Source: a virus
Lineage: Duplodnaviria > Caudoviricetes
Length of the DNA: 64,000 nt
Strand: one strand, 5' to 3'
Virus record (IMG/VR): IMGVR_UViG_3300030376_006284
Span: 8,658 to 72,657 of that record
This document shows positions 27,148-62,214 of this stretch, piece by piece. The notes beneath the pieces were generated by a model. That model made no database searches and was not told where the DNA came from. It saw only the letters and a program-made list of their open reading frames with translations. A program made the translations under genes and the position numbers. The first letter of the stretch is position 1. Each line of letters begins with the position of its first letter.

Positions 27148-27525
27148 ATGAAAGAAAAAACGAAAGCAAAGCCCACTGTTTACTTAGAAGTTTATGAGTC
27201 TACTCGCTACGAAGTATTCTTTGACAAAGAGGAGAACGACTTTGAGTCATTAGGTATTAACGGATGCCCTATAGGCTCAAGTGGGCTGAGTGTGGCTGAC
27301 GCTATAGAGGATCTATTCACAAGAACTAACTACAATTGCTTTACAGAATTTGAAGCCTACGGAGAAAATTCTAATGATATCTTTGTTGGATATCATGAGG
27401 AGGTAGATGAAGAAGATAGGATAGGAACGCTAGTAGGAGAAGATAACCGCTTAAATCACGGGCACAAACGCTTGAAGTACTACCAGATTAAAAGGAATGA
27501 AGTTGGCCGTTTAGTTTGGAATTAA
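27148..27525 (+). CDS. Early hypothetical protein
   Basis: 125 aa, acidic; AACAAACAACTAAACA leader. Confidence 0.65.
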   Translation: MKEKTKAKPTVYLEVYESTRYEVFFDKEENDFESLGINGCPIGSSGLSVADAIEDLFTRTNYNCFTEFEAYGENSNDIFVGYHEEVDEEDRIGTLVGEDNRLNHGHKRLKYYQIKRNEVGRLVWN

Positions 27526-27556
27526 TTAACTCAACAAACAACTAAACAACGAAATT

Positions 27557-27793
27557 ATGAATACAATAAAACGTGGTGACTTTGTCGCCTTTAATTATGG
27601 AGCCTTAGAATGTGAGAGAACATTGTTTGGTACAGTAACTAAAATCGTAGCTTGTGACACTGTACAGGTTAGCAACGTAATCACCCAAGCCTGTGCCCCT
27701 TTTGTCGGCCGACTTGAGGTGAACATAGGTAACGTAGTAAACCGCTTCGATAACAACACCTCAGACTGGGGCTCTAACAATTCAGAAGTATGA
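27557..27793 (+). CDS. Early hypothetical protein (SH3/KOW-like start)
   Basis: IKRGDFV...GTVTKI; same leader motif as 27148. Confidence 0.6.
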   Translation: MNTIKRGDFVAFNYGALECERTLFGTVTKIVACDTVQVSNVITQACAPFVGRLEVNIGNVVNRFDNNTSDWGSNNSEV

Positions 27794-27975
27794 AGTATAA
27801 ATTTAAAGACGGTAAGCTTATGCGTACGGCTAAGGAAACGAAATACTTCAGTGCGACATGCAACTTAAGTTTCACTGGTAGCAGTTCAGAAGACGTAACT
27901 GAGCAGTTACTTAAGTATTTGAATGACTCGGTAAAGTCTGGCGACCTATCGCCTTGGTTTATTATTGAGGAGTGA
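27790..27975 (+). CDS. Early hypothetical protein
   Basis: ATGA overlap with the previous gene. Confidence 0.5.
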   Translation: MKYKFKDGKLMRTAKETKYFSATCNLSFTGSSSEDVTEQLLKYLNDSVKSGDLSPWFIIEE

Positions 27976-28069
27976 GCACTGAACACTGCACCCTGTTCAA
28001 TGCAGGGTGCACACTTCAGCTCTTACAATTAGAACTGATAAACAAACAACGAAAAACAAAATATACATT

Positions 28070-29239
28070 ATGAAAATAGAAAATGAACAAGCCGTATTAA
28101 CTCCAAGATCAAGTAGCAAAAATGCCGCTGTTAGACCCTTGGATAAATTGTTTGAACAGATCTCTCGTAAGCGAGTTGACCTGATTGGTCACTCCTCACA
28201 AATGAGATTTGATTGGAGCAATGATATGAAGCGGTTCACCTTTAACTTGTCTAACACTGATGCAAGTAAGCCTCAATTTGAGTTCCCAACTAACCGTCAC
28301 TTCAATAAGAAGATGTACGGTAAGTTAGCTAAAGGACTCAGCACACTAAGCGATCATTTGGTATCAACTGATCAAACACCGTTGCTCACTCAGATTGTTA
28401 ACGAGCAATTCGAGAGGGACTCTAGAAAGTTCTTAGTTAGATCTCAGCAGAATGAAGCTGGGCTCTTTATAGCTAGAGCATTCTGCGGTGATACTTATAA
28501 GCCAATAGATGATGATCTTATTCTTGAAACTATGCTACCAGTAATTGAAGAGCATGATACCGAGTACGTGATCTTAGGAGGCCGTTGCACTATGGAACGG
28601 ACTTACTTTAACATCGTCACAAAGAATCCTGTGGTAGTTATGCCAACGGCAAACGGTGATAGGGAGGTTCATTTAGGTACTAGTATTTCAAATAGCGGTA
28701 CTGGCGATGGTAAGTTTAAGAACTGCTTTTTTGCGTGTGACGCTTATTGCCTTAACGGCCTCCGTTTTGGTGAAAAGGCTCATATGGAATTTAGCCAAGT
28801 GCATAGGGGTTCTAAGATCTCTCAAGAGTACGGCCAGTTACAAGCGGATAGCTTTCGTAAGGCCGAGCTAGCTTCACTGAGAACACTCATAGCTGACGCT
28901 ACTAGAGCGGCACTTGATCCTAAGAAGCATGCAGAGTTCGCTGAGATCCTTAGGCAGTCACATCAGTCACAAGTTACTGGTGATCCTATACAGGTTGTTA
29001 AAAGGATTGGTGCTGAGAATAAGTTCTCAGACATCGAGACTAAGATAGCTGAATTGGCCATGCAAAATGAAGAGCCTAATTTGTACGGTGTACAGGCCGC
29101 AGTGACTCGCATGGCTCAGGAGGTTGAGTCCTTCAGCCGTAGAGTTGAGCTAGAGGAGCTTGCAGGAAAGTTGATAACACTTCCTACTGCCAAGCGTGAT
29201 TCTTTATTAGCAACTGAAGCGACTGAGTTAGTAAGCTAA
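28070..29239 (+). CDS. DUF932/DUF945-like protein
   Basis: RAFCGDTYKPID, ISNSGTGDG and CLNG motifs; ATG 28070 follows an AACAAACAAC leader. Confidence 0.7.
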   Translation: MKIENEQAVLTPRSSSKNAAVRPLDKLFEQISRKRVDLIGHSSQMRFDWSNDMKRFTFNLSNTDASKPQFEFPTNRHFNKKMYGKLAKGLSTLSDHLVSTDQTPLLTQIVNEQFERDSRKFLVRSQQNEAGLFIARAFCGDTYKPIDDDLILETMLPVIEEHDTEYVILGGRCTMERTYFNIVTKNPVVVMPTANGDREVHLGTSISNSGTGDGKFKNCFFACDAYCLNGLRFGEKAHMEFSQVHRGSKISQEYGQLQADSFRKAELASLRTLIADATRAALDPKKHAEFAEILRQSHQSQVTGDPIQVVKRIGAENKFSDIETKIAELAMQNEEPNLYGVQAAVTRMAQEVESFSRRVELEELAGKLITLPTAKRDSLLATEATELVS

Positions 29240-29586
29240 TGGCACGGTCTGGAAGTTACTTAATTAGAGTTGGGACGGAGTGGGCTTTAATTAGCCGACT
29301 CTGTCCTGACTTTGAGATCCCTTTCCCTAGTCGTAAGTCTGCACTAACATATGCAAAATCAATTGGTTGGGCTGTTGTTAGGAGACAATCTTGGGATAGG
29401 ATCACAGCTCTAGACTTAGAAACTCTAGAGCCCCTCACACTTGAGGAGCGCCAAATAGTGCGCTCAGGTTTAGATAGGATAAAAAAGTTAAGGAAGGCTC
29501 GCAAGTTTGTTAGTCCGTTAGGGTTGGCACCTGTACTTAACTATTTTATAAAGCGAACTTTAAAAGATATCCAACCGTGGTTATGA
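29239..29586 (+). CDS. Early hypothetical protein
   Basis: TAATG overlap with the previous gene. Confidence 0.55.
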   Translation: MARSGSYLIRVGTEWALISRLCPDFEIPFPSRKSALTYAKSIGWAVVRRQSWDRITALDLETLEPLTLEERQIVRSGLDRIKKLRKARKFVSPLGLAPVLNYFIKRTLKDIQPWL

Positions 29587-29759
29587 AAAAAGCAAAATTG
29601 TATAAGTTCACTTTCTATGGAGCCCCCTCGCATTGGTGCGAGTCGGAGCCCACTGCAAAGGAGATAAGCGAAAAAATAGAGGAGTCACTATCCTATGTTG
29701 ATGAGCTTAATCAGGTGACCAAAGTTCAGGTCACTAAGCAGTCTGTAAAGGATTGCTAA
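29583..29759 (+). CDS. Early hypothetical protein
   Basis: ATGA overlap; ends just before the terminator. Confidence 0.5.
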   Translation: MKKAKLYKFTFYGAPSHWCESEPTAKEISEKIEESLSYVDELNQVTKVQVTKQSVKDC

Positions 29760-29777
29760 ATTAAACACTGAACACTG

Positions 29778-29812
29778 AGCGGTGTACCTGTAATGGGTGC
29801 ACCGCTTTTTTT
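29778..29812 (+). terminator. Intrinsic terminator ending the early region
   Basis: AGCGGTGTACCTG-TAA-TGGGTGCACCGCT followed by a T run. Confidence 0.85.
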
Positions 29813-30078
29813 GTGTTTTTAAACTGCCTGAGAATCGCCTGTATGGATTTATCCTGTACTGTGGGCTTGTTTATTTGATTCTGGAGGGGTTTAAAATAGC
29901 CCTTAAAAGGCTCTTATTAATATATGGCTAATACTTACCTAATAATTACTGCCTCAATTCCTAAGCGATTTATGAGGCAGTTTTAGTTTTAAAAAAATTT
30001 ATATATTTTCCTTTTAACGTATGAATGCCACCCCATTTTTGAACTTGCGTTAAAATTATAGAAAGATTAGAGTTAAGT

Positions 30079-30294
30079 ATGCAGATAATTAGGGAAGTCT
30101 TTCCAAATAATATGCCCTTTATGATAGAGGGTATAATAGATAATGAAGGAATAGTAGAACCTGACTCTGTGAAAATGTTCCCTATAATTTCACCACCAGA
30201 GATGCCCGCTTTTGTGGGGGAGCCTTTTCATTTAAAGAACAATAACTTAGCTAAGAGGTTAAACCATATTTTACATAAAAATGATATTACATAA
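30079..30294 (+). CDS. Hypothetical protein, probably leaderless
   Basis: TTGCGT-17-TAGAGT-5-ATG. Confidence 0.5.
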   Translation: MQIIREVFPNNMPFMIEGIIDNEGIVEPDSVKMFPIISPPEMPAFVGEPFHLKNNNLAKRLNHILHKNDIT

Positions 30295-30589
30295 AAAGAC
30301 ATCGTCGGCACATATATTAGATGCTTTATCTAGCGTTTCGGGCTACTCGACAGAAGATTTAAAAAGCGGAACACGAGATGCGGCTGTGTGTCAGTGGCGG
30401 CATTTAGGAATGTTTGCGGCACGGGCTAGGGGGTACACTTTGGTAGAGGTGGGCAAGATGTTTAATAGACATTTTTCTACAGTTATTATGGCTGAAAAGA
30501 AAGTAAACCAACACAAGAGCAGCGTAAAAGATACTCTTGAGTCTTTGAATGAACACATAGACAACTATGCAAACAGCAACAAAACCTAA
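30281..30589 (+). CDS. DnaA C-terminal (domain IV)-like HTH protein
   Basis: EDLKSGTR...WRHLGMFAAR...TLVEVGKMFNRHFSTVIMAEKKV follows the Bac_DnaA_C pattern. Confidence 0.8.
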   Translation: MILHKKTSSAHILDALSSVSGYSTEDLKSGTRDAAVCQWRHLGMFAARARGYTLVEVGKMFNRHFSTVIMAEKKVNQHKSSVKDTLESLNEHIDNYANSNKT

Positions 30590-31005: not shown

Positions 31006-34000
31006 TTAATCAAGACTCCTAAGGAGTGATCCACCCATACTATCTTTGTAGGCATCTATAACTCTTTGTCTTCTTATGTCTAAGTTTCTGTCTGACAAGT
31101 AATCCTTTATACCTTGTCCTTCGTTTTGGAAGTCTTCAGTGGTTATGTATCCCTTGGCTACTATATCTACTAAACTTTTTCTAAGTCTAGCTCCTTTCAT
31201 TATATCTTTAACAGCTGTTTCACCTAAAGCTTTTGAGTAAACTAAGTAAGCAGCACGAGCATCTTTCAAAGCTGCTTCCATCGCTTGGTATTCCCTGCTA
31301 ATAATTTTTTGAACTTGTTTATTTTGATAACCTTTTTCTTCGTTAAGGAGTACATTCTTTCTGGAGAGTTCACCATACAACCCGCCTTGGATTTCTTTGA
31401 AGCGTCTCCTTGCTAATTGTTCTAACTGAAGTGCGTGGAATTTAACAGGAGTTATATGTCTAAAGAACTCCCCTTCAGGACTGTAGTATGGAGAGCCCAT
31501 GAATGTTCTAGCATCCTCTCCTGTTTTGTAGTCGGCATCTCCTGTTGCTTTAATTATTTTTCTAGCGGCAGTTAATGAAGGAGGCTCTAAACCTTTTTCA
31601 TAAATGTACTTTAACTTCAACTGAAGAGCATCGGGTGAATACTCAGTGTAGATTTCTCTGCCTGTGTTAGCGTCTTCATTAAATACGAACACGTCCATCA
31701 TTGCGGAGAACATAATTTGCTCGTTTAAGAATGTGTTTAATAAGTAGTCTGTAGTCAAAGCTTCTATTGCTTTTTTAGGTTCACCCCTTACTGCACTCTC
31801 AAAACCCCGCATTAGGGAATCTAAGATTGGAGACATAGGATGGACATAACTGAAACTCATGGAGTTTAGTTGCCCGTTTTGTCTGACATAAAGTAAGTTT
31901 TGGATTCTTGACCACTTAGGACTGCCTTCTCTAAATTCTCTTTCGTCCTCGTCGTTTAGGTTAGTTACAAACAACTGAACAAGTTTTGGAATTGCCATAT
32001 ACAAAACAAAGTTTGTTCCTATAAATCCGTTGGCTCTTCGTTTACCTCTTGCCTGTATGATAGGGTTCTCACTTTTCTGTTCGGCTCTTGCCTGACGTGG
32101 GATATTAGTCATCAGTCTTGGGTTTTCACCTATGAACCTAGCAAACGGAGCTGTAATAACTCTGACCACAGGGAACTCTGCAAAGAACTTTACGATAGGA
32201 GCGCTTTGACTTCTAGACTGTTGCGTTTTCAAAATGATATCACCAGCAAGGGCATCAACCTCTGCATTAGTCATGTCTTTGTACATGTCATTTCTATTGG
32301 CCTCTATTGAGTCTTGTCTAGCGGCTAAGATAGTTTGCTTTTCATATTCAAAAGCAACAATTTTCATAGCGTTATCTAATGCTAAAACCAAAGCTTGCGC
32401 TTTCTTGGAAGCGATACTTCCAGTACCCGCTATCATGCCAGCGGCCTTTAACAAAGTCTTTTCTTGTACACTTCCTTCTGGGAACAACTTGCTTTTAAAC
32501 TTTTCTGCTCTGGATGGGTCTTGTAAGTTATCAATTTCTAATTGAATATCTTCGGCATCACGTTCTCTTGATATGGAAAAGCCTTTACTTCCCCCTAACA
32601 AATCTCGCAACAACGCATAGTTAACACCTCCATCTAAAACTCCTAAAGTAGAAAGCTGTGCGTAATAACCCATGCTACCCCTATCGGCAGAATCGTTTTG
32701 AGTATAGCTTCTCTTATTAAATACTCCTGAAGGGAACACTTGCCTTTTAATTTCTGAACCAAGCTGTGGGATATAACCTGCTAACTCACTTGCAGGTAAA
32801 CCATTTTGACTTAAGAATAAGAAAGAACCTAAAACCTGTCTCTCATAGAAGGGTACTGAACCCGCTGTTTTAGATACAAGACTCAATCCAGATATCTGAG
32901 CTAATATATTCTCTGCTTGTTCAGCAAAGTTTAAATCTTTTGCTCTTTCAGGATTAAGTATAGACCTTATGTAACTAGCTACCTCAGGATGCGCTAACAA
33001 GTTACCTTTTTCCTCAACAGAACCATCTTCTGTTTTAACTCTGTAATTAATTAGAGGATCAGTGTTTGGTGGTTTTCTTGTTGGTGCTTCTTTAGCAGTG
33101 CCATCAGGATTAAACTTAACTTTAAAAGCTCCTAATTTTGTGGTTCCCTCAGAACCCGCAACTTCAGCAACATCGCTATCCGAAGATGTAGTTTTGCTGA
33201 CCTCTTCATAATCTTTATATGGATTAGGTCTGTCAAACTTCTTAGCTCTAGCGGTTTCCTCAGCTATCTTTTCTTGAGTTACTAACCACCCTGCTTTTAT
33301 TCCTTCACTAACAATACGATCTTTAAGAGCTAGTTTAGAAGCCAACCCTCCAAGATTTATTACTGTTCTGTATAAGATATCTAAGTTAGATTCTTCTTTA
33401 AACTCTCCAAGAGCAGCTCTCATTCCCTCAGGTAAATTGCCCCTCCTCTTAAAACTATCTACACCGTAGTCACCTTCGTAACTTTTTAAGAACTCTTCCA
33501 ATGCTTGTTGAGCTAAGTCATCGTTAGACTCTAGCTCTGCCTGAGCTTCGATGTTTGCCATCTCCTTTGTAAGGCCCCCTTCTTTTATAAGGTGCTCAAC
33601 TCTTTGAGCTTTCCAATGTGTTGCAAAGTAATCTAAGGCTAAGTCTCTTGCATCTTTGTGTACCTCTTTATTTAAGAACTCATTAGCCCACTCGCCTTTC
33701 TTGTAGGTAAATATTCTGTATTGTTTTGTTAAATACAATTGGAGACCAGCACCTATTCTAAGTTTAAGATCAGGGGCCGTGAATGAAATTATGTCAGCTA
33801 CCTCAGAAGATAAAGTGTCAGCTAACTTTCTTAAAGAAACTATATGGTCTGCCAATTCTGGAGAATCATTTCTTATTATTGCTATAGATTGGTTTTGCTT
33901 TCTTTTAGCTGCTTTAATAGCTTCTGTTCTCGCTTTAGATTTAGCAGTTTCTCGATTATTAAAGGCATCTAAGAATGCTTTTTCTTTTTCTTCAGCAGTT

Positions 34001-37000
34001 AACTCTTCATTCGTGTTTACACCATCCAGTTCGTTAAGATAATCTTCTTGAATCTGTGCAAGTATTTCTTCGGGAGCATTTAAATCAGTTGATCCAGTAG
34101 CATCCATGATAACCTGAGAAGGTATCTCTTTACCTGCTTGCACATAAACAGAATTAAGTAAGTCATCTGTTGTGTTTTTGTAAGCTAAAACTTTATTTCC
34201 AATAGTAGATTTAAAGAAGTTAGATCTTTCTATGTATCTTCTTAACTTTCTTTCGTTAGGCCCAAAGAAAAGACTCCAATACTTACCCCCTTTTTTCCAT
34301 TCAGGGTGTGCCTTCGATCTGTACAATAAACGCTGTAAGTATTTAACTCCCCTTGAATCCTCCATTACAGGTATATCTGCTCTCAATATGTCAGTGAGCA
34401 TATTCCATGATTCAGTAGCTTCTAAATACTCAGGAGCTTCCGTAGGATCTTTCGTGTGGATCTTAGTTCTTTGGTCGTCAGGGAAAAATTTATCTTTTAT
34501 AATTTGGTGTTCTTTAAGTAAATCTTCGTAACGCAAACCTGTACTTTCGATCTGATCTTTCCATACTCTTTCTGATCCACTTGGTGACCCCAGTAGTCCT
34601 AAAGAAGACTCAAGATCGGTGATAGTTTTGTGGTATTTGTAGAGAGGATGACGCTGACCCAAGATAGTTTCCATCCTGTGGAAGATAGCGTTTCCTATAC
34701 GACCTTCTTGTATGTCTTCGTCTGCACTGTGTGGTACTCTTAAAGATTCTACAACAAAAGGATGAGCTTCTTTAAGATCAGACATTAACATGAATCGAAC
34801 CTGATCTTTTTCAATCGAAACAAGATCATATGAAAAAGGTACGTGGTTGTCGTTTTCTGACTCTGCGTTTATTCTTTCTTCTTCTAAGTGTGCTTCTAAT
34901 CTAAGTTTGGCTTGTTCATATTGTTCTTTCTTAACTTTGTTAGAAGGTTTCTCCAGAATAGAGTAACCGTCTTCAATAGCTTCAGAAGAAATATATAAAC
35001 CTCCTACTTGTTTACCTGCAAGGGATGACCAATTATTTTCTGGCTGTGCACTGATCCGTGTACGCTGTATAGGTGGATCGTTATTTACTTCGTTTGCTTT
35101 GAAGGTTCTTCCGACAATCGCTTCAAGAACTGTAATACCTCTGTTGGTTTCTTGGACTTCGTCTGGTGAAACGCTTTTTCCAAAATTTTGTTCAACGATT
35201 TCCCCTCGGCTCCGTACTTCTCTGCCACGTACATTGTTAGGTTCAGCGAACGTGTTAACGAATTTGTTTGCTTGTAGCTCTGCGTTAAGAAATTTAGTGC
35301 TTCCTTTAACAAACTTTTTTCTGAGTGTTTTAATGCTTTCATATTTATTTATAATTAAGTCTTGTATTAACCTATTACTCTCTTCAAAGATAGGATTCAT
35401 TTGAGAGTGATAAGCCCTAACCGCTGAAAAAGGATAAGTAAATCCTGCTCCCTCGTTTCTTTGTCCTACGTGATTAACTTCATGTAAAATTATATCAGTC
35501 AAAAAGGCAGCTAGTCCTTCTACTCCGACATCTTCATTTAACTCTCCGTCTTCAGTAAAGTTCAATGAACCGTATACAGGATTAACTAAAATTACACGAG
35601 GGTTTATGCCAGTGTTTACTCCTCCCCAGTTTTTAGAAAGAGCAGATCCATAATGGTAGCTAACCCCTTTGAAGTTAGGATCATTCTCAGCATCCGCTTT
35701 TGCAAAATTTCTCAAAGCTAACCCAACATCATCATTAGAACTTAAAGAATTATCATTCTCATAAAAATCATATTTGTATACACCTAAGAATTGATCTGCA
35801 ATGTTATTAACAATACTTGCGAAATCGTTCATGAGTTCTGTTTCAGATGGATCGAGATCGAAGTCTAAATTGTTGTAAACAATGGGGACGCTTGGTCTCG
35901 CCTCATTACCATCAACGCCACTTATAATAGAAAATTCTTCCTTGAATTTTTGTTTAAAATATTCCCTTCCATATTTCCTAACAACATTGTGTACCTCTTC
36001 TTCTACAGGATGGTTATCGTCAGAAGATGTTTTCCCACTCCATTGGGGAGAAAATTTTTCTCTAGTATTACCAAAAGGATAATCCATGCTATCCGCAGGT
36101 ACCCTTGGTTTTATATTTACTTTTATATTATATGGAACACGTTGTTTTTGTACGGAAGGAGTGCCCGTTACAAATTGAAAGAGACCATTTGAATAGTATT
36201 CAATTGATTTATTGCTAATACTTTGACCGATAGGAGAATCACCTTCTGTCAGAAAAGGTATATTAGCACCTTCTTTATCAAGATCACCTATTTCGTATGC
36301 GAAAATATCAATGTCTGCTTGAAGAGTACGCACACTTGTTTTTTCATAACCATTGTTTTCTATATTATCTAAGGAAAGCGTGTTACGCATTGAGCGTTCA
36401 TTAATTAATAGAAGCTGTCTTTTTTCGTCGAGTATATTTTTATGAAATGAAGGAGCACTTAAGTAAACACTTTCTCCGTCTATTTCCTTAGGGAACTTCA
36501 TCCAAATTTGTGTGCCTGACGGAGCATCTACTTTCCGTGAAGAAATTTCAAATGGCTTTTTGCTTATTAAAGTTTTATTATCCACTTTAACAGTTGACTC
36601 AACTCCGTCCCTAACAGTCTTAACAAATATCTCTTGGGCTGCACGAAGCATTGAAATTTTAGCAAGGCCAAATCCTCCAGAAGGATTATCAGATTCTTTA
36701 TAACTTCCTCCCAAAGTAAAGTAAGCAGATTTAATTATTTCGGGGGACATACCTATTCCATTATCTCTGATGTATACCCACTGTTTATCATCAACAACTT
36801 TTCCTTTTTTAAGATCGTTTACGATAGTTTCTAAAAGTTCTGGGGGAGCAGATACCTCTTCAGTCCAGCTCGCTGGTTGAATCCTCTCCCCCCATTTCCA
36901 AGGCTTTTGATCAGGGTCTGGAACTTTTATACTGTCTCCTTGATTCCATAGCCCGTACTCAATTTGAGGTTGAGAATTAGATTCTATCCAAATTTGTGGG

Positions 37001-40000
37001 TTCTGGTTTTCTAAATCTTTGATTGCGTCATAGGAATTTTGAATACTTTCTTTATATACTATATCCTTTAATTGGCTGTCATACATTTTAGGGCCTAACA
37101 ATGCGAAGATCCTTTCTACGTCCACATCAAAAGTTGCTGACAATTCTTCAGATACATTTTCTTCGGCTTGTTTCTTTTCAGAAAACATTTGAGAAAAAGT
37201 TTTGTCTCCTCTGATTTTAGTAAACTGTTTAAGATCCTTATCAGACTCCAAGTCACCACCGAACTCACTTAAGTAAGGAACCATATAATTCCTAAGAAAA
37301 TTCTTTAAAGATTCTCCACCTAAAGATCTGGGTTTTTGCCTAGCTTTAATGGTAGTTGGTTTTAAAGAGTTGGGTTTACCTGTAATTTTTTCTACTGCTT
37401 GTACAGCTTCTTCGCCTGTCCAATTTCCTTTTACAACAAGATCAACTTTCCTTGGAGGCTCAACTGCTTTAGCTTCTTTAATAATATTTTCAGGGACATT
37501 ATCTTCTATAAGTTTTATAATATTAGAATCAGCTTTACCCTTTAAATATGGGGTAAAAAAGTTCTGCATAAAATCTTTAAAAGATTTCCCACCTATCTTA
37601 CGAATGGTCGTGTATGGTTTTCCAAGAGGGGGAGTTTTAGATGAATTAGGTTTACCTGTAATTTTTTCTATGGCCTTGATAGCATCTTCTCCTGAAAAAT
37701 TATTTCTTATATATCTTTCAAGCTGTACATGCCCTCCAAGCCTAAATGTATTTGTGTAGGAAGTCGAAGAAGCTCCTTTAATAATTTCAGGGGGGACATT
37801 ACTTTCAATTAATTTCCTAAGTTCTTGTAACTTCTTTGGAGTAAAATATTCTGCTGATGCTTCGGCTTCTTTCTGAATATCGTAAATAGTTTGCCTTTTA
37901 TTACGCAGATCTCCTGAACGTATTTTAGAGTACTGTAGTCCCTGTTCCGAATCCGCAGCCACATTTGCCCCAGCCGCAAAAGGCTTTTCAATTAACACAG
38001 CTTCTGGGTTAATTTTTACATCAAAAGTTTTTGATCCTTTAATATTTACTATAGCTTCTGGCAAAACTTCTTTAACAAAAGCATTAAGACTTTCACTGTT
38101 GAAACCTTTTTGAAAACTATTTTTAGTTACGATTTCAGCAGGGCCTACCACTTTAAGACCTTTAGTATTAAATACATCAAGTACACTACGAGCAGTTACT
38201 ACTGCCTTGCCTCCTTCTTTTAGAGATTTATAAATGTCTTGTAAAATCTCAACCCTTTCATCAGCCGTGGCAACGTTCATAACTACGTTGTTTATAATAA
38301 AATCTTGAGACTCAGCGGGCGGGTTCTTTTTAAGAGTAGGAGCAACAGATCCTTCTGCATCTTGGAAATAAGGTTCCAAAGAATTAAATGCAAAATCTGT
38401 TCCCCATTTTCCTCCCATCTTTCCTCCCTTACGTACATAACTATTTTTAGAAAGTTCTTCTAGAGCGGGAGAGCCTAAACCTTTCCCTGAGCCCCAATCC
38501 AAAATGTTAAACGTGTAGTCTTTAGATAATTTACCTCTAACTATATCCGTAACAGATTCTCTTTTGTACGTTTCCTCAGCTGTTTTCTCAATGAAATCCC
38601 ACAAGTTTCTATATGTTTCAACCGTATTAGGGCGTTGGGTGTTTTTACTATCTTCTTGTTTTAAATTATAGTTCTTATCTAAGAACTCTCTTGTAGCATG
38701 GGGTTTGTTTAACCCCAACGCTTCTATACGTAAAATGCCATACTTAGGATCAGCGTCAGCAACCCTCTGAGGATTTGGTGACTTAACTTTTTTCTGTGCC
38801 TTTAATGCCTTTGCTTCTTTTATTGCTGCTTTGGCCCCCGACGTAGTAGCCCATTGCTCTGCTGTGTATAGCTCAGGATCAACATACCTATTCATTGACG
38901 CTACTTCTAAAGCAGCTTTTACTGTTGAGCTCAGAAGAGACTCTCGAATAGGAACTCCTCTTGAAGAGACATAGTCTGGGTTTAATCTAAAATTGTTAAT
39001 AAGATCTGTTATAAGATCAACGAACTTATCCCAAAGACTTTTGCTCTCTCCTTCTGCATCAGCCTCAGGATCACGAATAGACATTAACCATTCTTGAAAC
39101 TCAATATTAGAAAAAGATTCTGTAACAAATTCGTCTATATTTCCTAACCCATAAAAATTAGATTTGGAAGTAGGATTGAAGTTACTCATAGCCGACGTAG
39201 CATAAGTAGTTCTTTTAGTTGGCGCATCAAAACCAAAGCTTCCTTTTTTTAAGAGATAAGTGTCTCCGTAATCTATTGCTGTTAAGTAAAGCTTGAGTAT
39301 ATCCCGTATAGGCTGAGGTGTGTTCTCATCTTCGGATACTTTTTTATACCCATTCTTTAATGCTTTTTTATCTAAGTTTCTTCTCGGAAGTTTACTTTCA
39401 ATAAATTTATCAAACTGCCTTTGGGTAGCTTGGTGCATAATCTCATGGATTACAGTTGATGGGGGCACACCTTTTAATATAAACTTGGCTATTGTTTTTA
39501 CTTTTGTTTTATCGGATGCAAAATTTTTGCCTTCATTAAGAAAAAATTCAGTGTTAGTAAAATCTTCAACATAATTCCACCCAATAATTTTTTGAAGTTC
39601 GGGTTTCTTTTTAAAGTTAAGATGATCCTCATCAGTACTTTCTCTATCCCCTGCATAATATTTTACAAACCTTTCAAGAATAATTTTTTGTTCGTCTGAA
39701 AGATCAGAATAATCTCCGTAATCATTTATGTCAGGTGTTTCATCGAACGCAGAGTAATTATCGTTTTCATATTCTAACCCTTTTTTTATTCCGTCCCAAT
39801 TTAGTATCGCATCTATTGGGTGTTTAAATTTTGAGTGCAGCCATTCTTTAACTGTAAGTGTTTCTAATTTTTGTGTAGCACTTTCTTTTATAGCGTTTGG
39901 GTAATCAGAAGGAACATTAAGTGTCTCTTTGTTGCCTAAGAAAACCCCACGATCAGGACTTGAGTAAGAATGATCTCTTTCAGATCTTCTAACTCGGACA

Positions 40001-43000
40001 TTTAAAAGATCGTCGGAAAAAGTTTCGAGTAAAGTCTGAGCCATTTCTTTAAATATAGTAGGCTCTCCAGTCTTAACATTTTTAGTATTAACTACGGTTT
40101 CTAAAATGTTTCTTATATTTGTATTTAATTTGTCATCTACAGAAACCATAGCTGAACCACGCTCGTCGACTCTTGATGCGTAATCGTAGGGATTCCGCAA
40201 TGTGTTTTCTACTTGAGCTAACCTATTTAAGTCGTCATCAACAGGAACTTCTTCGTATTTAAGATCATCCTGAAGTGGTGCGAGCCTCAAAGTTAAAGGC
40301 ATTACACTCCCCCCTTCATATCTAACTGGAGACAAATCTTTTATTTCTTCAGCTAGAGATTCGTTATAAGAATCCTCCCCTACATCAAAAACTATTTCTG
40401 CTTCTTCTCCATAGAATCTCCTTGCAGTTTCTAGTCCTGCTCCTGAAAGATAATAAGGTTCTGTCGTACCGCTTCTGATTGTAACTAATAGAGAGCCATC
40501 TTCTTTTATAACTTCAGTTACAAGAAGAAACTCTTGAAGCCCTAACGCTCTTGAAATATATATAGAAGGAGAAGGAGTAAATGCATATTTGTTGGCGGGT
40601 GTTAGTATAAAATCTCTGCTTAATTTGTTTTCTCCTTTAAGTAAATCATCTCCTTTTGGGTTTTTTACAACTTCAATATCTCGTTCAATACCACCCTTTC
40701 TAAAATCAGGAGCTTGAAAAGTAAATGAATTGGGTATCCTTTTCTCTGCTTGGTCGGAAGCTTCTCTCAATAAATTAAATAATTGATCTGCGTGTCTTTG
40801 TATATTTTTAGTGTTAGCTAATTTTTTGTATTTAGCGTCTAAGTTTTGCCAAGATATAGAACTGAATTGTTTTGGTTTTTCTATACCTTTTTTAACTGTC
40901 AATGGAGCAGCTTGACCCCAGTCAGGTCTCCCTACCCCTATACCTCTTTTGAGGTTAGCTGAGTCTATCGTTTCGCTTACAGACAACGCTTCTTCTTCAG
41001 GCATTCCTTTCGCTTTAGAAGTCTGAACAAACTTTATTATATCTTCTTGAGCTTCTTCAAAAGTAATGTCTCCTAGTTCATAGCTATTCCATATTTCTGC
41101 TACTACCCTTACGTGGTTTTTATTGCTCTTCCATTTAGGGGGGAACAATTGTCTGACCGCTTCCCATGTTATTGATTGAACTTCTCTAACTAAATAGTTA
41201 GCTCCTGACAAATCGTTTTGGAAAGCTACTGATCTATATGCTTCAGCAAAAGCAGGATACAATCCGCTCAACCCTAAAGTAGCATCAGATGATGTACCCT
41301 TACCACCAAAGTTCTGAGTAACCTCAGTGCTATTTCCACTGACAGGTTTTAATAAAAGAGCAGCTATGGCGTGTGTGTCCATAGTAACATGACCCGAAGT
41401 ATTTGAAGGGTCTGCGATGTTATTGTAAAAAGAACGGACTTTATGCATGAGCCCCAGTTCTTTAGATACAGACTCCATCTCTTGATCTTGAGAAGCTTCT
41501 AGTATTCTAATAGACTTCTCTATAGTAGAGTAACTACCCCACGCTATAGAACGAGGCTTACCTTTGTCTGATAAAGTAGGTCTATCTAAGATAGCTCCAT
41601 CAGGTCTAATAACATTAAAAGTCTTAGGATCTCTAAAGGATGCGTTTGCCGTAGCTTCAGAGAACATTCTTACAAATCGAGCTTGTAGTGCTTCTTTGCT
41701 GTAAGAAACTTTTTTACCTTTAAAATTAAAAGATATAGGTTGTATGTCTTTAAGTGCTTTACCTCTTAATCCAAGATTTAATATCTTAGCTTCTTTGTCT
41801 CTTTTGTCTTTAGCTTTCTGGCTGTCCCAATTATTAAATTGAAGTATGCCCTCGCTGTCTGTTGCGTGGTTTCCTTCGTCATCATATACAGGAGTTGCGT
41901 TGCCTTCATAATAAGAATTACCATTTTTATCTGTTTTTAATTCTGGCTCTCCCGCTCTTTTTAAAAAGTTATTAGCCATAGATGAATCAAAAACATATCC
42001 CTGACGAGCAGTGAATATATGCATTATCCGCTCTGCTAAAGCGACGTTCATGTACCAGTCTTTTTGTGGGCTATTAACAGCTAGAATAGCGGATGATTGC
42101 TCCAAAGAAATATTGTAAGCATCAGCAAACCTGTTGGCTATTAAGTTTGCACCATCATACCAAAGAGAAGCAAACACTCTCAAGTCTTGAGGGAACATCC
42201 TTATAAGCATGCCTAAGTTCTTAGTAGCTACATCATTTAAAGAAGAATAAATTCTGTCTGCTTGTTCTATTGGATAAGCTTTTTCAGCTTTTGCTAAAGC
42301 TTTTAGCTTAGAGGACAGTCTATCTGTTTTAGTTTTAAGGTCTGCACTAAACTTAGTAAGTTGATTTTCTTTTTTCTTAATTGCTTCTAGCTTAACAATT
42401 AAACTTTTAGCTCCTACCCTAACAGGTTTTCCGTCTTTAATATCTTGAGCCAACTCTTCAATAATGTCTACTGCCTTCGCAGACGATATTTTTATTTCAG
42501 ATCTAAGGACTTTAGGTTTGCTATACTCTTTAAGAGCACTGTTCATAACAGTCTTAGCTGCTCTAACATTGCCTTTTAGTCTGGCTCCTTTGCGTAATAA
42601 ATCTTCTATCTTAGAATTTAATTCCTCAATAAGAATAGCTGGTTTACTTTCTTCTAAAAGCACAGACTCAATCTCTGCTTTTTGTTCTTCTAAAGCTTTT
42701 GCTCTATCGCTGTTGCCTACAGCAGAAGCTTTCCTAATTTCAGCATTTATATTTTTAACTTCTTTCCTAACAGAAGCTCTTAAATTTTTCTTAGCTCGTG
42801 TAAGAGAAGTTCTTAATCTCTTAACATCTGAGTTCAGTTTATTTGAAGCTTTCTCAGAATCTTTAAAAGATTGTCTTGCTTCGTCAGCCCTTTCTTTTCT
42901 CTCAGGTTTAAGTTGATCTGATTTTTCTTTTACTTTGAAACTTATTAAATCGCTTACAAGTTTCTTTTTAGATTGTGCTATGTCTTGTATAGCTTCTTCT

Positions 43001-46000
43001 TTTTTAATCTCTGCTTTGTCTACAGGATTTTTAGCCTTCCTTACTTTTTCTAGTAAAGGATCTCCTGAAAATTCTTTTGCAACTATAGGGAAGTTCAAAA
43101 GAACAAGTGCATTCTTTTTGTACGCTTCAGGATTTAATCTTAAAGATGCTAGATCTACCTGATTGTTTGGGTCAGCTCCCTGACCTTCTGTTCCTTTTGC
43201 AGAGGGACTCCTTGTACCTACAGTCTTGCCAACAACAACGTTTCTCTTTACTTCTTCAGGATCTATTTCTGACATCCACTCCTCTCGCTCTTCTTCCTCT
43301 GGAGCGACTGTGTTTATCTCATTGCCTATTAAAGTGTTTTGTTTTCCATAAACTCCTAAGTCTATATCTAAATCATCTAATTGTGTAGGGTCAGGTTTCC
43401 TACGGAATCCTTGTCTAGCTGCTTTAAACTCACTAGCTATTTTGTTAACAGCTATTTCAAAATAAGGCCCCATCTTAGAATCTTTGTTGAGTTGATTTTT
43501 AGATCTAATCCTACCCATCAAAAAGTTCTCTATGTATTTTTTATACAAAGATAGTATTCCTTGGTTATCTTTAATCTTTAGCCAATCAAAATCAGTTTCT
43601 GTAGATCCTCGTCTACTAACCAAAGAAACATGTTTTCTTACAAGCTCTTCAAATAAATATTCTTCTAAGCTTTCTTTAATAGATCTGTTCTTATTATTTA
43701 TTTCTACACCTTCGGGTAAGTCTAAATACTCAGGCTGACCCATACGTAAATACGTTATTACTTTTTCAACGGGGTACCCTTTTATAGGCTCATTGTATTC
43801 TTTAGCCATTCTGATGAGAGCGTTAGCTCCTAACTTGTCAGCGTTGACAAGTTCTTCTATGGCGTTTTGCCTTTCTTTGTATGTTAAAGTTTCCCAAGAT
43901 ATTTGATGAATTAATTCTTCATCAATAGCTAGATTTATTATAGCTTTACCAGCAGCTGGTTTGTTCTGCGCTAGCAAATCTTTCACCATTTCAGAATTAA
44001 TGCCTATAGCTTTTCTAGCAGAGTCGTACCAAGCAACATAAGGCTCTCCATTACTTTCGTAAGCTTGAGTTCCTTCTCTTAATAATCTCCTCTTTACAGA
44101 GCGTAAGATTTTATCTGCTAAACGAGATTGTTTTTTGATAGCTTTATCTTTTATGTCGGGAGCTTCTTCAGCTTCATCAGGGTCTATGTCGGCTACGCCT
44201 TCTTTTGTAGGCTCAACAACTTCTTCTGGAGAAGATATAGAAGATAACTGAACATCTAAATCTGTTTGGTCTTGGACTTCGGGGTTAACATTTGATACGG
44301 GCAGCCCATCCAAAAGACGAATACCTAAACCTTTATCCGCTAATTGTTCTATGTGTGAAGCTATTTTTTCTTTGACAGGATCAGACAGTCTTCCTATTCT
44401 GACTCCTACAGGATCAGCTTCTTTAAGAGCTACTATATCTTCTTCTGTTAAACTTCTGCTAAAATCAACAGACTTCGGAACTGCCAATAAAACAGGGGGT
44501 TGTCCTTGTCTTATCTTAATAACAAAAGCTACGTTATTTCCATCAAATTCTCCCTCTAGTATCATCCTTGAAAATAAAGGATTCTGAAGTATAGCTTCTC
44601 TTAAAGGAGACAAATCGTCATCGGTTCTTACATCACTTAAATCTACAGCTACAGAGTTAGTTGAAGAAACTAAAGCTACTTTAGTATTGGCATCAGAATT
44701 ATAATCTGACCCTTCCTCAAGTAATAAGTTATTTACTTTTGTAGGTTCTATTAAATTAGGATTAGTGCTATTAACTATAGATACTCCTTCTACATATGTC
44801 TGCGCTTCATCTATGCTCAGTCCTTCGATGACGACAGTATCCCCTGTGTCTTGGTTAAAACCGTGAACTACTCCAGCTTTTTCAGGTTGGGGTACATTAA
44901 AGTCTAAACTTTTTACGATTGGGATATCTAGAGAAGGGGCAGAAGAAACGTTTACTACTTGAGGTATAGATGTTTGAGAGGCAACTGGTATATCTTCTAA
45001 AGACTCTACTCCTTCAACACCCTCTACGCCTTGCTCGCCTTGAGCTCCCTCTACGCTTTCGTTGTTTTCAATTATTTTACTGAACTCTTCAGGAGTAATC
45101 TTTTCTAACTCAGTAAAAAACTCTGAAGTTAACTTATCGGATATGTTGTTGATGTACTCTCTAATAACTGGTCTAAAAGTATCTTGTGCAGTTTTAACAG
45201 CAGCTCTTAAATAATCTAATATATCTAAGAGTTTTTCTTTCACTGAATTTGATAATGCTCCTCCCCGTGCTTTACCTCCCCATGCAGATTTTTCTACCTC
45301 TTTAGTACCTCCTAATAATTCAAATTGAACCAGTGAATTAATATGGGCAGTAACTAGTATTTCTTTATCTGTTACTTTACTTTCTAGCCCTTCAACAAGA
45401 TCTTCTCCTAAAACAAAAGAAGCAGCTCTGTCTCTTTCGTAAGGGCTCATCTCTTCATAGATTGCTGTTCTTTCTCTGGTTATAAAATCTTTAAGGCTAA
45501 GAGTCCCTGTAGATTCTTGATCTAAAAGTAAAAATTTATTTCTGCTAGATACTAATTCAAAAGCAGCAGCCATTGATTCGACAAAAGAACTTTTAACAAA
45601 CTTAGACCTTCTTGCTTTAGGAATAGAGGAAGATGTTTCCGCTATGTTACTTGTGTTTAAAACCAAAACAACTTTTCCTTCATTGGTAATATCAACGAAA
45701 TATTCATTACCAGTTAGGCTCTGATACTTTTCAGATTCAGGGTCTATGTCTAAACCTAACTGTATCAGTGTATCTTCTGACGGGTCAGTGACTACTGTTA
45801 CGTCATTGTTTTTTAAGCTTACCCTATTTTGATCTACAAAAGTATCTACTGCTAATTGGATTCCTTCTTGCTTGGCTAGTTGATCAGCTTGGTCTTTTAC
45901 GTTTGGAAGCAGAGGATAATCTACTATTTCTACAAGAGAAGACTCCTGCCTATCATTTACTTTTTTCTTCCTAACACTAACTCTAGCTACGCTAGCATCT

Positions 46001-49000
46001 TTAGTATAAGCTACACGAACTTCTCCAGAACCATCTTTAGGCACATACTCTACTTGATATAAGTTAGAGCCTTCTTTTGTTTCTATCTCCGACATTCCTG
46101 TAATGTCTTCTGCTAAAACCGTTACTACTTCTTCAGGATCTCTATCTGCATCAATAACAGTATTGGCAGTAGTAGTCATATTAAAAGAACCTGCTGGTGC
46201 TACAGGGTCTTTAACAAAACCAGAAAGAAGCTGTCTCCTGTTTTGTTCTAAAACTTCAGCTGTCATAGGAGCTCCATTCTCCCGCAGTGCTGCTGCTTTT
46301 TCATTAATCTCTGCGGCTTCAGCTATAACCTCATCAACAGCTTCTCTATATACTGCTTCTGTTATTGCTGACTCATCAGGGCCTAGCTTTAATTTACTTT
46401 TAACTTTGGCTGCTAAAGTAGCTATTGCGGGTATGCCTCCTCCCATGAACCCCCCTAAGACAGCAGCGTGTATTGTATTAGCCATCCTGTCTCCGAAAGA
46501 AATGTTTTCATTTAAAACTTTCTGATCAACAAAGCTTCCCAAAAACTCATCTAGTCCCTCCTCTATACTTTCAGGAAGCACGTACTTTCTAAAAGCGAAT
46601 GGTAATTTTTTTGTAACTAATCCAGTAAGTCCGTGAGCAATAGACTTGCTTAAACCTTCTCTTCCTGTCTTAGCCGCAACCTCTGCTACTATTCTATTTA
46701 ATAAAGAATTTCCTGCTTTATCTGTAGCAGAAGACATTTTGATAAGCTCTTTATAACTAGCTCTTGCGTGTCTAATGCCCTTAATATCGTGAATGGTTCT
46801 CATTCTTTTAGCACCAAAGGATTCAACACTTCCTTTTCCTGCTACAGAAAATCCAACAGTGATCCCAGCAGTAATTAAACCTCTAAAGAGAGCACCCCCT
46901 AAAGCGGCTTTTCTCTTTTCCTCATAAGTCATAGAGTCAGGCATCGCATCCATGTAAGTGTAATAAGACATGCTTGCTGATCTAACTCCTGCGGGAGCTC
47001 CTACACTAAAAGCAACTCTTCCTAAATCTGTAAGCTTGTTTGTTTTACCTCCTGATATTGCAGTTAAGTCGTCAACAAGTTTTGTTATAACGTTAGTAGA
47101 TGATCCCTTCAACGGAACTAACCCATCTTTATCAAGGATAAGACGAGTGGCTTTATCTTTTAAAAGTTTAGAATCTGTAGTTAAAAAAGCATCTCTTAAG
47201 GCTCTACTTGTAGCAGCGTTTGAAGATATCGTATACCCTTTTGAAGCAAGTTGCTTTGTTAAAAGTTTAGTGGTTCCTTTTTTAAGGCCCGCTGAAATTC
47301 CTCCAGTCAGTGCAATATCAACACCCACTTCAGGAAGTATGTTAAATGCTTCTAAAATTTTACCATCTTCCCCAAACAAAGCTGCTAGCTCTTTTCTTTT
47401 ACTAACCCGCTGTCTTGCTTTTTCATAATTGTAATAAGCTCCTTCGCTGCCCAAAAGAGCCCCTAATCCAAAAACTACGGAGAGCCCTCCATCTACAGTC
47501 CCTTTTATTGCGGCTTCCCCGTAAGCAAGTAGCTCACTATAGTTGTCTTCATCAGCTAAAAAGTCGTCGAGTATTTCATACTTCTTTTTATCTGTTGAAC
47601 TTTTTAAGTTTTCTTCAAGATACTTTGTCCAACTTTTATATATTTGCCTACCTCCCCTACCTGCTTCTGTAATTAACCTAACAGAATCGTTATAAGTATT
47701 ATTTAAATAATCTTTTCTTGATTCTTTTAAGAACTTTTTTTCCTGCTCGTTTAACTCAGGGTGCTGGGCTACAGCTTTTTCAAAAACATTTCTGTTTAGC
47801 ATTAACTGAGGGTGAGCAGATATACCAAAGTCAGCAAACTTCCTAATATTTAAATGTCTTTGCTTGTCATCTTTAAAATAATTTAAAGCTCCTGAGTTGT
47901 TTAACGCAGAACCCACTACATGAAACATACTATCTAGTATCTCCTCATCAGAAGAATCCTTTAATGAAGGCACAGCGGCCCTTAAAGAACCCGCTATTTT
48001 TTTAGGGTTCGTTAAAAACTCACGCTCTTCTTCGTTTAATCTACTAATTAATCTATCGGCATTAATAGTTAGGGGGTCTAAAGGCATCCTATTTCTAAAA
48101 ATATTTTCTCGCCCACTGCCCAAGCCAGAATAATTAATAGCCGTATCAAACCTATCACCTACAGAGCCTTTAAAGGATGCTTTAAAAGCATCAGAAAATA
48201 AACCTTTAACAGGAACAAAATAATCTGTAGCGGTAACTGCATCTACAGCAGCTTTTTCTTTTAACTCTAAATCGTTTAAACGAACTAAAATTTCTATTGC
48301 AGATAACGCTTTGCTAGCCTCAACATTTTGTTGGGCTAATTCACTCATAACCTTTCTGCGCTCCGAGTCTCCTGTGAATCTCGCTCTAAAATCATAAAGA
48401 TCGTCAGGCCCTACCCTATCAAAGCCCTCCTGTTCTTTAATATTATTAGCCGCAGTTCTCAGCTGTACTAATTTATCTTGTACTGCTGTTACGTTTTTAT
48501 TAGTTCTTTGTATCTCATCTACTGTCTTTTTGAAATCCCCATAAAACTGCAACTGCGGGGCTATGCGTAATAAATCTCCTTTTGAAACAGCTCCACTATC
48601 TAAAGCATTATTGAAAGCATTTTTAAAGTTTGGAAATTTACTTGTAAGGAATTGTGTAGAAGCAACGTTAACTTGTCTTTTACCTTCCTCATCATAGTAC
48701 GAAGAAAAAGGCAACCTATTCTCAGAAAACTCACCCGTAACTTCTCTCTTCAAAGAATCAAAGTGATCACGAGACGCAGCGTATACTTGATCTTCTTGAG
48801 ATAAATTTTCTCCTACAGGTTTTCTTTTAGAAAAAGGAGTTTGGTTTTCTTTATCTTCACCATAAAGATCAACATGGTGCGCTTTAAAAAAATCTACTTT
48901 ATCTTGATCATGGATATTAGGATTAAAAGTGTTTAACTTTTCATACAAAGCAGCTTCTTTTTCAAAAGGAACATCATCAGAAAACAGTGAGAGTTTATAA

Positions 49001-58147: not shown

Positions 58148-58198
58148 TTTGCTACTCAGCAAGTGAGGGGGGTTTGTAGGAGTTCCTCCCTTATCAAA

Positions 58199-58233
58199 AG
58201 CCCTGATGATGTCGTGGGGGTGTCATCAGGGCT
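58199..58233 (+). promoter_or_regulatory. Strong hairpin upstream of the polymerase gene
   Basis: AGCCCTGATGAT / GTCATCAGGGCT stem, preceded by two smaller hairpins. Confidence 0.55.
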
Positions 58234-58252
58234 ACTTTACCCTAAAAATATT

Positions 58253-60046: not shown

Positions 60047-60047
60047 G

Positions 60048-62213: not shown

Positions 62214-62214
62214 A

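Follow-up and report, generated by a model that had tools for sequence, protein, structure and literature searches.

A recurrent linker peptide at the boundaries of exchangeable modules in a giant phage protein

INTRODUCTION

The MARTX toxins of Vibrio have conserved ends, between which lie variable effectors that are swapped among strains and freed by cuts in unstructured linkers; the cuts are made after leucine by the toxin's own inositol-phosphate-activated cysteine protease. Polymorphic toxins carry short demarcation motifs, VENN in CdiA and PxxxxDPxGL in Rhs proteins (the latter also an autoproteolysis site), which mark the single point at which a constant region gives way to an exchangeable cassette, a C-terminal toxin with a partner immunity gene. 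Here we describe a short peptide, Q-x-[ST]-x-[IV], that recurs in a giant open reading frame (ORF), P0001, of a phage of the Caudoviricetes (record IMGVR_UViG_3300030376_006284). The DNA analyzed, called the window below, is the 64,000-nucleotide (nt) stretch from positions 8,658 to 72,657 of that record; coordinates are those of the window unless amino acids (aa) or the genome are specified. P0001 occupies 31006–49263 on the minus strand, a quarter of the genome, and encodes 6085 aa (~680 kDa). The copies of the motif are designated J1 through J7, and the modules that they delimit M1 through M7.

P0001 resembles the MARTX toxins in having conserved terminal regions around exchangeable modules. 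This is a resemblance of design and not homology: the motif is different, P0001 is a phage protein and not a secreted toxin, its cleavage is predicted only, and there is no Pfam hit to a MARTX-type cysteine protease domain across the 6085 aa at E up to 0.1. Like VENN and DPxGL, the motif is a short conserved peptide located exactly where homology between relatives ends, but here there are at least seven junctions inside one protein.

The sites of prohead proteases of the T4 and phiKZ type end in glutamate at P1. The P0001 motif has no glutamate at any conserved position, and Pfam and PHROGs recognized no prohead protease among 12 neighboring ORFs scanned. In the prohead-protease systems, including the internal proteins of T4 and the ejection proteins of SPN3US and phiKZ-like phages (PMC5694885 and PMC10052503), proteins that are packaged and ejected are cut at a short consensus site as the head matures.

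Giant polyvalent phage proteins are viewed as injected arsenals. P0001 carries several unrelated conflict-type domains in one phage polypeptide, and so falls within the definition of these proteins. None of their signature Pfam domains (ART-PolyVal, MPTase-PolyVal, LPD) reaches threshold in P0001 itself; further Pfam accessions on the related proteins P0018 and P0020 are ones that we take to be LPD families. What is shared with the polyvalent proteins, as the main text of PMC5512222 describes them, is the collection of many conflict-type domains in a giant polypeptide encoded among late or structural genes, and the individual elements ART-PolyVal (in P0015 and L014), GHKL ATPase, HExxH and a methyltransferase-like module. 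Autoproteolysis has been proposed for the metallopeptidase domains of such proteins (Iyer et al. 2017, PMC5512222); the same source lists P1 DdrB and DarA as processed, and N4 virion RNA polymerase (vRNAP), ArdC and TraC1 as unprocessed. No recurring junction motif appears in the passages of it that were consulted, and its main text does not use the word 'linker'. Full-text literature searching, supplementary files aside, returned no description of a junction motif in proteins of this type. Compared with the proteins described in those passages, P0001 differs in having a conserved boundary peptide, and in carrying its cargo between conserved N- and C-terminal modules.

A boundary peptide offers an experimental handle on the organization, evolution and processing of these proteins. 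It predicts where functional units start and end in proteins that Pfam barely annotates, and it names residues to mutate and termini to seek by mass spectrometry. More than 150 giant proteins of the family are known only from metagenomes.

RESULTS AND DISCUSSION

Copies of the motif within P0001

The preliminary description of this DNA had reported six copies of the strict pattern Q-[FYLR]-[ST]-[SKR]-I, together with a looser one, EWMSEID. The six are exactly where they had been placed, with the glutamine at aa 1672, 2799, 3777, 4013, 4733 and 4931. EWMSEID (aa 1995–2001) is a conserved stretch but not a copy of the motif; the real seventh is KQNTLIG (43324–43344), in full G-K-Q-N-T-L-I-G, where homologs read SKQSTLIG. 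The copies are as follows.

J1, VQLSSIS (Q1672), 44233–44253, minus strand: the weakest copy; six homologs are without the Q and the I
J2, KQNTLIG (Q1975), 43324–43344, minus strand: Q and I nearly invariant; the mobile M2 starts ~25 aa further on
J3, KQFSSIS (Q2799), 40852–40872, minus strand: Q invariant; closes the DUF7178 module
J4, LQYSKIR (Q3777), 37918–37938, minus strand: many homolog alignments break here; virome contig joint at 37952
J5, KQFTKIR (Q4013), 37210–37230, minus strand: contig joint at 37230; identity to P0002 falls from 95% to 51% two residues after KQFTKIRGD
J6, IQRTRIS (Q4733), 35050–35070, minus strand: Q and I invariant; identity to P0002 returns to 98% ~10–14 aa before
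J7, DQRTKIH (Q4931), 34456–34476, minus strand: Q and I invariant in alignment A2

The six strict copies compare with 0.075 expected, and none of 2000 shuffled sequences reached six (the maximum was two), for a five-position pattern that was written after the copies had been seen. A blind count of all a.b.c patterns in P0001 placed Q.T.I at rank 18 and Q.S.I at rank 75. Pooled as Q.[ST].I they occur eight times against 1.66 expected (p = 3e-4), which equals the median best pattern of 100 shuffles. For P0001 by itself, correction for multiple testing leaves the three-residue core short of significance, and thus only suggestive. The N-terminal 1671 aa and the C-terminal 1150 aa of the protein are free of copies, and the other ORFs of the 72.7-kb genome contain three loose matches (two of them in a duplicated gene) against eight in the giant protein. 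The eighth of these, Q2389 (LEQSSAIL), lies within a predicted helix of DUF7178 and is probably a chance match.

Could the whole pattern be chance, picked out by eye in a very long protein? Within P0001 the core is indeed no better than the best pattern of shuffled sequences. Yet the motif is conserved at matching positions in homologs, it correctly foretold copies at junctions that P0001 does not have, and the arrangement is replicated in a second lineage. These comparisons, set out below, make chance an extremely improbable explanation.

Conservation in homologs

A word-indexed search identified 14 relatives of P0001, all metagenomic, of 3754–6299 aa and 44–87% identity by BLASTP (38–92% in alignment A1). 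Q-x-[ST]-x-[IV] is present at matching junctions in these proteins, for example as QEQFTSIRW, SIQYSKIK, LDQFTKIRG, PVQDTQIRV and DPQDTIIGQ. Over the three core positions of the seven junctions the mean identity is 0.81, compared with 0.46 at 215 flanking linker positions, a difference equaled in none of 20,000 permutations (14 proteins, P0002 being left out). The core residues are the main conserved island of the J4, J5 and J6 linkers, while the J2 and J3 linkers are conserved throughout. The fourth motif position is variable, being K in 24, S in 20, L in 10 and R in 6 of 90 instances.

The codons used differ among the copies and among the phages (CAG/CAA, TCT/ACT/AGT/ACA and ATA/ATC), and there are synonymous differences among the seven P0001 copies and the matching copies in L003, L004 and L005. 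Since the codons vary at synonymous sites, the signal acts at the level of protein and not of DNA. A DNA-level recombination site is ruled out by the same variation. Taken with the conservation of the core, the alignments show a motif kept by selection on the protein.

The location of the copies was examined in AlphaFold2 models of aa 1650–2849 and aa 3760–4959, calculated from 14-row alignments (mean predicted local distance difference test score, pLDDT, 57.6 and 48.5, respectively). All seven copies are in coil, in stretches with pLDDT <50, in agreement with the earlier statement that they fall between domains. However, ~48% of all modeled residues are below pLDDT 50, and the placement of the copies in linkers is therefore supportive but not strong.

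Modular organization of P0001

In P0001 a cargo region that varies (aa ~1000–5000) is enclosed by conserved modules at the N- and C-termini. The assigned modules are as follows.

N-terminal carrier, 46264–48006 (aa ~420–1000), minus strand: common to 58–67 of 155 other giant metagenomic proteins; no motif copy
M1, 43345–44232 (aa 1678–1973), minus strand: helical module between J1 and J2 in the AlphaFold2 model
M2, 40873–43323, minus strand: long coiled coil and DUF7178; the most conserved part, a unit that recurs in 79 other viral loci
M3, 37939–40851 (aa 2805–3775), minus strand: an uncharacterized part, the zincin-1 cassette and a methyltransferase-like part with DWGSGKG
Zincin-1 cassette within M3, aa ~3007–3521, minus strand: HEIMH at 39433–39447
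M4 cassette, 37231–37917 (aa 3783–4011), minus strand: other cassettes take its place in homologs and virome contigs
M5 cassette, 35071–37209 (aa 4019–4731), minus strand: GHKL ATPase and middle domain (aa ~4046–4443), and zincin-2
Zincin-2 within M5, HEVNH at 35470–35484, minus strand: match to HExxH
M6, 34477–35049 (aa ~4747–4928), minus strand: compact alpha/beta domain, with pLDDT block means mostly 70–89
M7, C-terminal carrier, 31009–34455 (aa 4937–6085), minus strand: no motif copy

Across the 6085 aa Pfam identified only DUF7178 (PF23802, E 1.4e-17) and HATPase_c_3, the latter at 25.0 bits against a cutoff of 25. The GHKL fold is supported by Foldseek (E 2.7e-7, Hsp90/GyrB) and by VIA (Z 9.7–8.0: GRP94, ParE, MutL, MORC); the results of both for the aa 3760–4959 model are filled by matches to the GHKL domain. 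The two HExxH sites are at aa 3273 and aa 4594. Neither the zincin nor the methyltransferase parts reach a Pfam family threshold, and comparison of solved-structure sequences with the whole of P0001 gave no match at E up to 0.1.

Homolog breakpoints cluster at the motif

All-against-all BLASTP of the 15 proteins gives 596 internal alignment ends, of which 240 lie within 10 aa of a motif copy; random placement gives a mean of 16.9 and a maximum of 36 in 1000 trials. The ends fall into classes at aa ~1402–1469, ~2994–3007 and ~3521–3524 of P0001, and at J4, J5 and J6. The first of these is a low-complexity region without the motif; the next two are the edges of the zincin-1 cassette, at which P0001 has no copy. 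None of the ends lies inside the low-confidence loops of M5.

The gains and losses of individual modules are consistent with this. The zincin-1 cassette is absent from P0012, P0014 and P0015, and one motif copy is found at the joint in each. M5 is not present in P0008, P0010 and P0011, where aa 3782–4694 are missing and exactly one hybrid copy is left. Comparison with the homologs reveals 11 segments that are absent from P0001, eight of them in a hot spot spanning J4–J6. P0009 was excluded from this count because a single BLAST alignment had been returned for it, so that its N-terminal 1654 aa were wrongly listed as novel. On the left side of the eight hot-spot segments there is a motif copy within 15 aa in six, and within 20 aa in all eight. 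On the right side a copy is found in six of seven, the seventh being 27 aa away, while the eighth segment runs to the end of the protein. The three segments outside the hot spot (one at the N-terminus and two near aa 1400–1560) have no copy at either edge. Among the inserted cassettes are an ART-PolyVal domain in P0015 (E 4.2e-18) and an ART-like domain below threshold in P0006; a ParB-like DGNHR domain can be recognized by eye in P0007 and P0021, with no Pfam hit.

The clearest replacement is seen in P0002. The five segments up to J5 are 97.4, 99.0, 98.2, 94.5 and 95.3% identical to those of P0001, and those after J6 are 98.5 and 99.0% identical, yet between J5 and J6, where M5 is allelically replaced, identity is only 51.1%. 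KQFTKIRGD is matched in full, and in the 25-aa window that follows identity drops to 24%. The J5–J6 module of P0002 is instead 97% identical to that of P0003, while the remainder of these two proteins is only 55% identical. Thus a whole GHKL-plus-zincin module has moved between distant backbones, and both of its ends are at motif copies. The homolog comparisons show that modules have been gained, lost and replaced among these phages at, or within a few residues of, the copies.

A search for shorter homologs gave only four matches. P0021 resembles a C-terminal fragment whose start falls within the zincin-1 cassette, and it therefore gives no evidence for a split gene.

Module exchange in virome contigs

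The giant gene was also compared with contigs of four sequencing runs (X9, X12, X14 and X18). A contig of X9 follows the gene over 37952–47748 with 108 differences in 9797 nt (98.9% identity), and one of X12 over 37952–38397 only on that side of the joint. In both, the 721 nt between 37952 and 37230 are replaced by 481 other letters. Position 37952 is six codons before Q3777 of J4, and the codon for the leading K of KQFTKIR (J5) begins at 37230. X14 has a loose end at 37952. A further X9 contig matches 31156–35110 with 13 differences in 3955 nt (99.7%); its divergence begins 14 codons before Q4733 of J6. A loose end at 35110 is seen in X14, and X18 has the same joint at 35110–35200. The joints at J4, J5 and J6 indicate that near-identical natural backbones differ in their M4 cassette and have diverged in M5. 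Parts of 35269–37704 have little or no contig cover, and only joints and loose ends, not gaps, were counted as evidence. X18 is an RNA-library run; that it holds contigs of the giant gene does not show transcription.

Thus the second suggestion made in the preliminary description, that the motif is a swap point for the gain and loss of cassettes, is borne out by the homolog breakpoints, the allelic replacement and the contig joints, all of which fall on or near copies.

A second lineage with the same layout

How general is this arrangement? The C-terminal 1150 aa, used as a HMMER query, retrieved 324 proteins (E up to 0.001), the majority of which are 1000–5500 aa in length and match at their C-terminus. 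In a set of 155 relatives, 148 match P0001, almost only in aa ~420–1000 and ~5000–6000, and the core of M7 (aa ~5000–6000) is common to up to 138 of the 155. Since the matches are mainly at the two ends, the architecture is one of carrier, cargo and carrier. In a set of 94 other proteins that have the C-terminal module and a length of at least 1500 aa, the glutamine form of the motif shows no enrichment (164 seen against 191.5 expected).

The module comprising the coiled coil and DUF7178 was found in 79 viral loci. In L006–L023 the match to it starts at query residue 349–363 (in one case 315) and ends at 1130–1172, that is, from just after J2 to J3. In six of these proteins (L009, L010, L011, L013, L014 and L017) a different motif, [FYWRL]-S-[RK]-A, occurs in 7–10 copies against 0.7–1.0 expected, and P0148 of the C-terminal family has eight copies against 0.8 expected. 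This lineage-B motif is usually preceded by I-[AR], giving the layout I-[AR]-[YLRFW]-S-[RK]-A, and it flanks the shared M2 module on both sides at positions matching J2 and J3. Here too the alignments break at the motif, with 105 of 172 internal ends within 10 aa of it (random mean 7.1, maximum 17). L009 and L010, for example, are 95% identical up to ...IARSRA and have different cassettes beyond. The two dialects can be superimposed position by position, giving h-[Q | A/R]-Phi-[ST]-[KR]-[IV | A]. The ART cassette has the tail ERFD-x5-I-[QR]-[RY]-S-[KR]-[IA] in both lineages, ART-PolyVal being identified in the lineage-B protein of L014 with E 6.5e-10. Because the second lineage has the same layout in different letters, these comparisons suggest a general design rule for the more than 150 giant proteins of the family.

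The tail of the ART cassette is relevant to the idea that the motif has no function, being an inherited end of each cassette that has been spread by duplication and recombination into linkers that merely tolerate joints. The cassette brings its own tail in both lineages, the copies of the J4–J5 hot spot closely resemble one another ([LI]-x-Q-F-T-K-I-[RK]-G), which common descent would produce, and such spreading would need no DNA microhomology. It is harder to see why the core should then remain fixed while its linker neighbors drift, in backbones that are only 38–55% identical, or why J2, J3 and J7, where no swaps are observed, are among the best-conserved copies. The deletions in P0008, P0010 and P0011 that leave exactly one hybrid copy argue in the same direction, and we regard a functionless tail as improbable.

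What the motif may do

As judged from the alignments, then, the motif marks the end of each cargo module with a boundary signal that acts at the peptide level. Phages with backbones of only 55% identity exchange whole modules, and the signal is found where these join.

We propose that the motif, of consensus [acidic/Pro-rich]-h-Q-Phi-[ST]-[KS]-[IV]-[RGK] in a flexible linker at each cargo module end, would be a recognition site read in an extended conformation; the conservation of alternate residues (i, i+2 and i+4) within a flexible linker suggests an extended strand. A protease of maturation or processing would be the most likely reader, and it need not be one of the HExxH cassettes; cutting would free the cargo modules as separate effectors, either in the capsid or after ejection. 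Recombinants would then survive only if every module retained such a site, which would explain the piling up of breakpoints at the motif. We assign a probability of about 0.4 to this reading, in which the boundary signal is read by a putative processing protease that releases the cargo modules. Cleavage itself is plausible, given that the copies lie in linkers, that conserved and variable positions alternate within them, and that each lineage has its own variant of the motif.

A more specific version may be put forward tentatively, at rather less than even odds. A dedicated protease would cut after the last residue of h-[Q/R/A]-Phi-[ST]-[KR]-[I/A] at every boundary, so freeing at least seven effectors, and co-evolution of protease and site would give rise to the dialects Q-F-T-K-I and Y-S-R-A, with any cassette that ends in the local dialect being pluggable. 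If this were true, the giant proteins would constitute a modular delivery platform for anti-host enzymes in a large group of uncultured marine phages.

A number of points weigh against the protease reading. No cleavage product, protease or binding partner was identified in these sequence analyses, and Pfam and PHROGs applied to the 12 neighboring ORFs (10 per library, eight in both) recognized only TerL and the tail fiber. The alignment ends are not independent events, the proteins being related, and breakpoints would favor linkers even if the role of the motif were different. Some module boundaries of P0001 (aa ~1400–1560, ~3007 and ~3521) have no copy, and J1 is poorly conserved, reading ELSSG/E in six proteins. 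Shallow alignments underlie the AlphaFold2 models, whose confidence is low, and the term linker thus rests partly on weak models. Lastly, the homologs are metagenome assemblies, and some of the mosaics could be assembly chimeras; countering this, the same joint is found in contigs of two runs from two studies.

A non-cleaving role fits the same data nearly as well. The motif could be a functional boundary site that remains uncut, either a strand that docks onto the capsid, the portal or a chaperone, or a ratchet or refolding site, for example for a host Hsp70-type chaperone, by which the ~680-kDa protein would be threaded and refolded one module at a time on ejection. Linker location, alternating conservation and selection at the protein level fit this equally well. 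Moreover, many copies pair F, Y or I with K or R, and Hsp70-type sites are hydrophobic with flanking basic residues. Against a chaperone site, an invariant glutamine together with serine or threonine is more specific than known chaperone preferences. No copy is docked on a neighboring domain in the two 1200-aa AlphaFold2 models, a weak negative, and no partner was identified. There is precedent for transfer in the uncut state, in that N4 virion RNA polymerase and plasmid ArdC are listed in the main text of PMC5512222 as transferred unprocessed. On balance we consider an uncut site somewhat unlikely.

The preliminary description had suggested a polyprotein cut at the motif, perhaps by one of its own zincin domains. 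There is a zincin to hand in most of the proteins: P0001 has two HExxH sites, 13 of the 15 lineage-A proteins have at least one, and all six lineage-B proteins have one at aa ~1402–1456. A hydrophobic residue at the fifth position of the motif would suit the P1' preference of thermolysin-type zincins. Nevertheless P0014 and P0015 have no HExxH and keep six and seven loose copies of the motif, so the protein's own zincins are unlikely to be required. The second zincin is missing in P0008, P0010, P0011 and P0013, and the first in P0012, with the motif retained, and neither zincin reaches a Pfam family threshold. While autoproteolysis by such domains has been proposed (PMC5512222, main text), self-cleavage of P0001 at the motif by an HExxH cassette appears distinctly improbable. 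In summary, the original observation of a recurring junction peptide is real and becomes stronger with the relatives included, and the data support exchange at the motif and disfavor self-cleavage by a zincin.

Several known motifs were considered and rejected. The beta-clamp motif QL[SD]LF needs hydrophobic residues at positions 4 and 5, while position 4 of the motif is mostly K, S or R. The PCNA box, the signal-peptidase rule and the Bacteroidetes glycosylation sequon do not fit the conserved positions. Self-cleavage of the Nup98 type (Phe|Ser-Lys) is a resemblance only, the domains that precede the copies being unrelated to each other.

Further features of the modules

The J2 linker (43153–43410, aa 1952–2038) is predicted to be disordered (pLDDT <50) and yet has a mean conservation of 0.75; it contains EWMSEID and the stretch GRTVGTRSPSAKG. 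Such conservation in a predicted disordered segment means that it probably has a function of its own. DUF7178 (40915–42195, aa 2357–2783) has dozens of residues that are invariant in 15 proteins; among these are several His, Asp and Glu, suggestive of an enzyme.

Both terminal modules (46264–48006 and 31264–34266) contain moderately hydrophobic 19-residue stretches with hydropathy 1.4–1.6; in the N-terminal carrier moderately hydrophobic 19-mers occur at aa 787–808 and aa 933–951. The terminal modules may be carrier or ejection parts of the giant protein.

M1 was considered as a degenerate zincin (EELIH), but it has no homology to the zincin region of lineage B. M4 appears by eye to consist of two similar halves, each with ...EKITGKPNS...; P0012 has a single copy of such a half. 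The repeat was not recovered by a BLASTP self-comparison of M4 at E 1e-3. M6 lies between J6 and J7, and the wider superfamily contains no relative of it. A search of the ESM Atlas with M6 and with a 458-aa upstream ORF gave best scores of 0.86, below the meaningful level.

Genome setting and neighboring genes

The source contig is a single phage genome of 72,657 bp that carries TerL and a tail fiber. TerL (PHROG 2, E 3.3e-11) lies upstream of the giant gene on the same strand and is followed by two small ORFs, while a 1873-aa tail-fiber protein and other late genes lie further downstream. The giant gene is thus a member of the late operon, after TerL. From gene position alone we infer that P0001 is a virion protein. 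In Roseobacter phage CRP-738 the DUF7178 protein, gp40, is of 835 aa; it is preceded by TerS, TerL, portal and one small gene, and the coat gene is next.

Searches of 50,697 GenBank phage records gave no DNA match to 34000–45000, no tblastn match to TerL (587 aa) at E 1e-5 and none to the C-terminal module; aa 1–3000 gave only three matches, all to DUF7178. The gene stretch is present in 20 runs of 12 studies, all of them marine metagenomes or viromes. The phage is thus remote from all cultured ones. With TerL unmatched in the GenBank phages and the stretch found across 12 marine studies, the lineage looks widespread but uncultured.

A small island of plus-strand ORFs (125, 410, 115 and 102 aa) at 27148–30589 breaks up the long late operon of the minus strand, between the giant gene and the next structural genes; its 410-aa ORF has no Pfam family. 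The 1873-aa protein (6543–12164) matches 13 PHROGs families, of which 10 carry the annotation tail fiber or tail-collar fiber. Beyond it, at 2–6541, is a very large late gene that runs off the window and encodes 2354 aa in the full genome. Lastly, a block of ~4.1 kb is found near both ends of the contig with 83% nt identity, at 58142–62234 (genome 66799–70891) and at genome 947–5034. It encodes proteins of 627/607 aa and 721 aa, and there are additional matches of 470 nt at 85.5% and 130 nt at 98.5%. The block could have arisen by paralogous duplication; alternatively, the contig could be a circularly permuted genome put together from two strains, with the two blocks as its ends.

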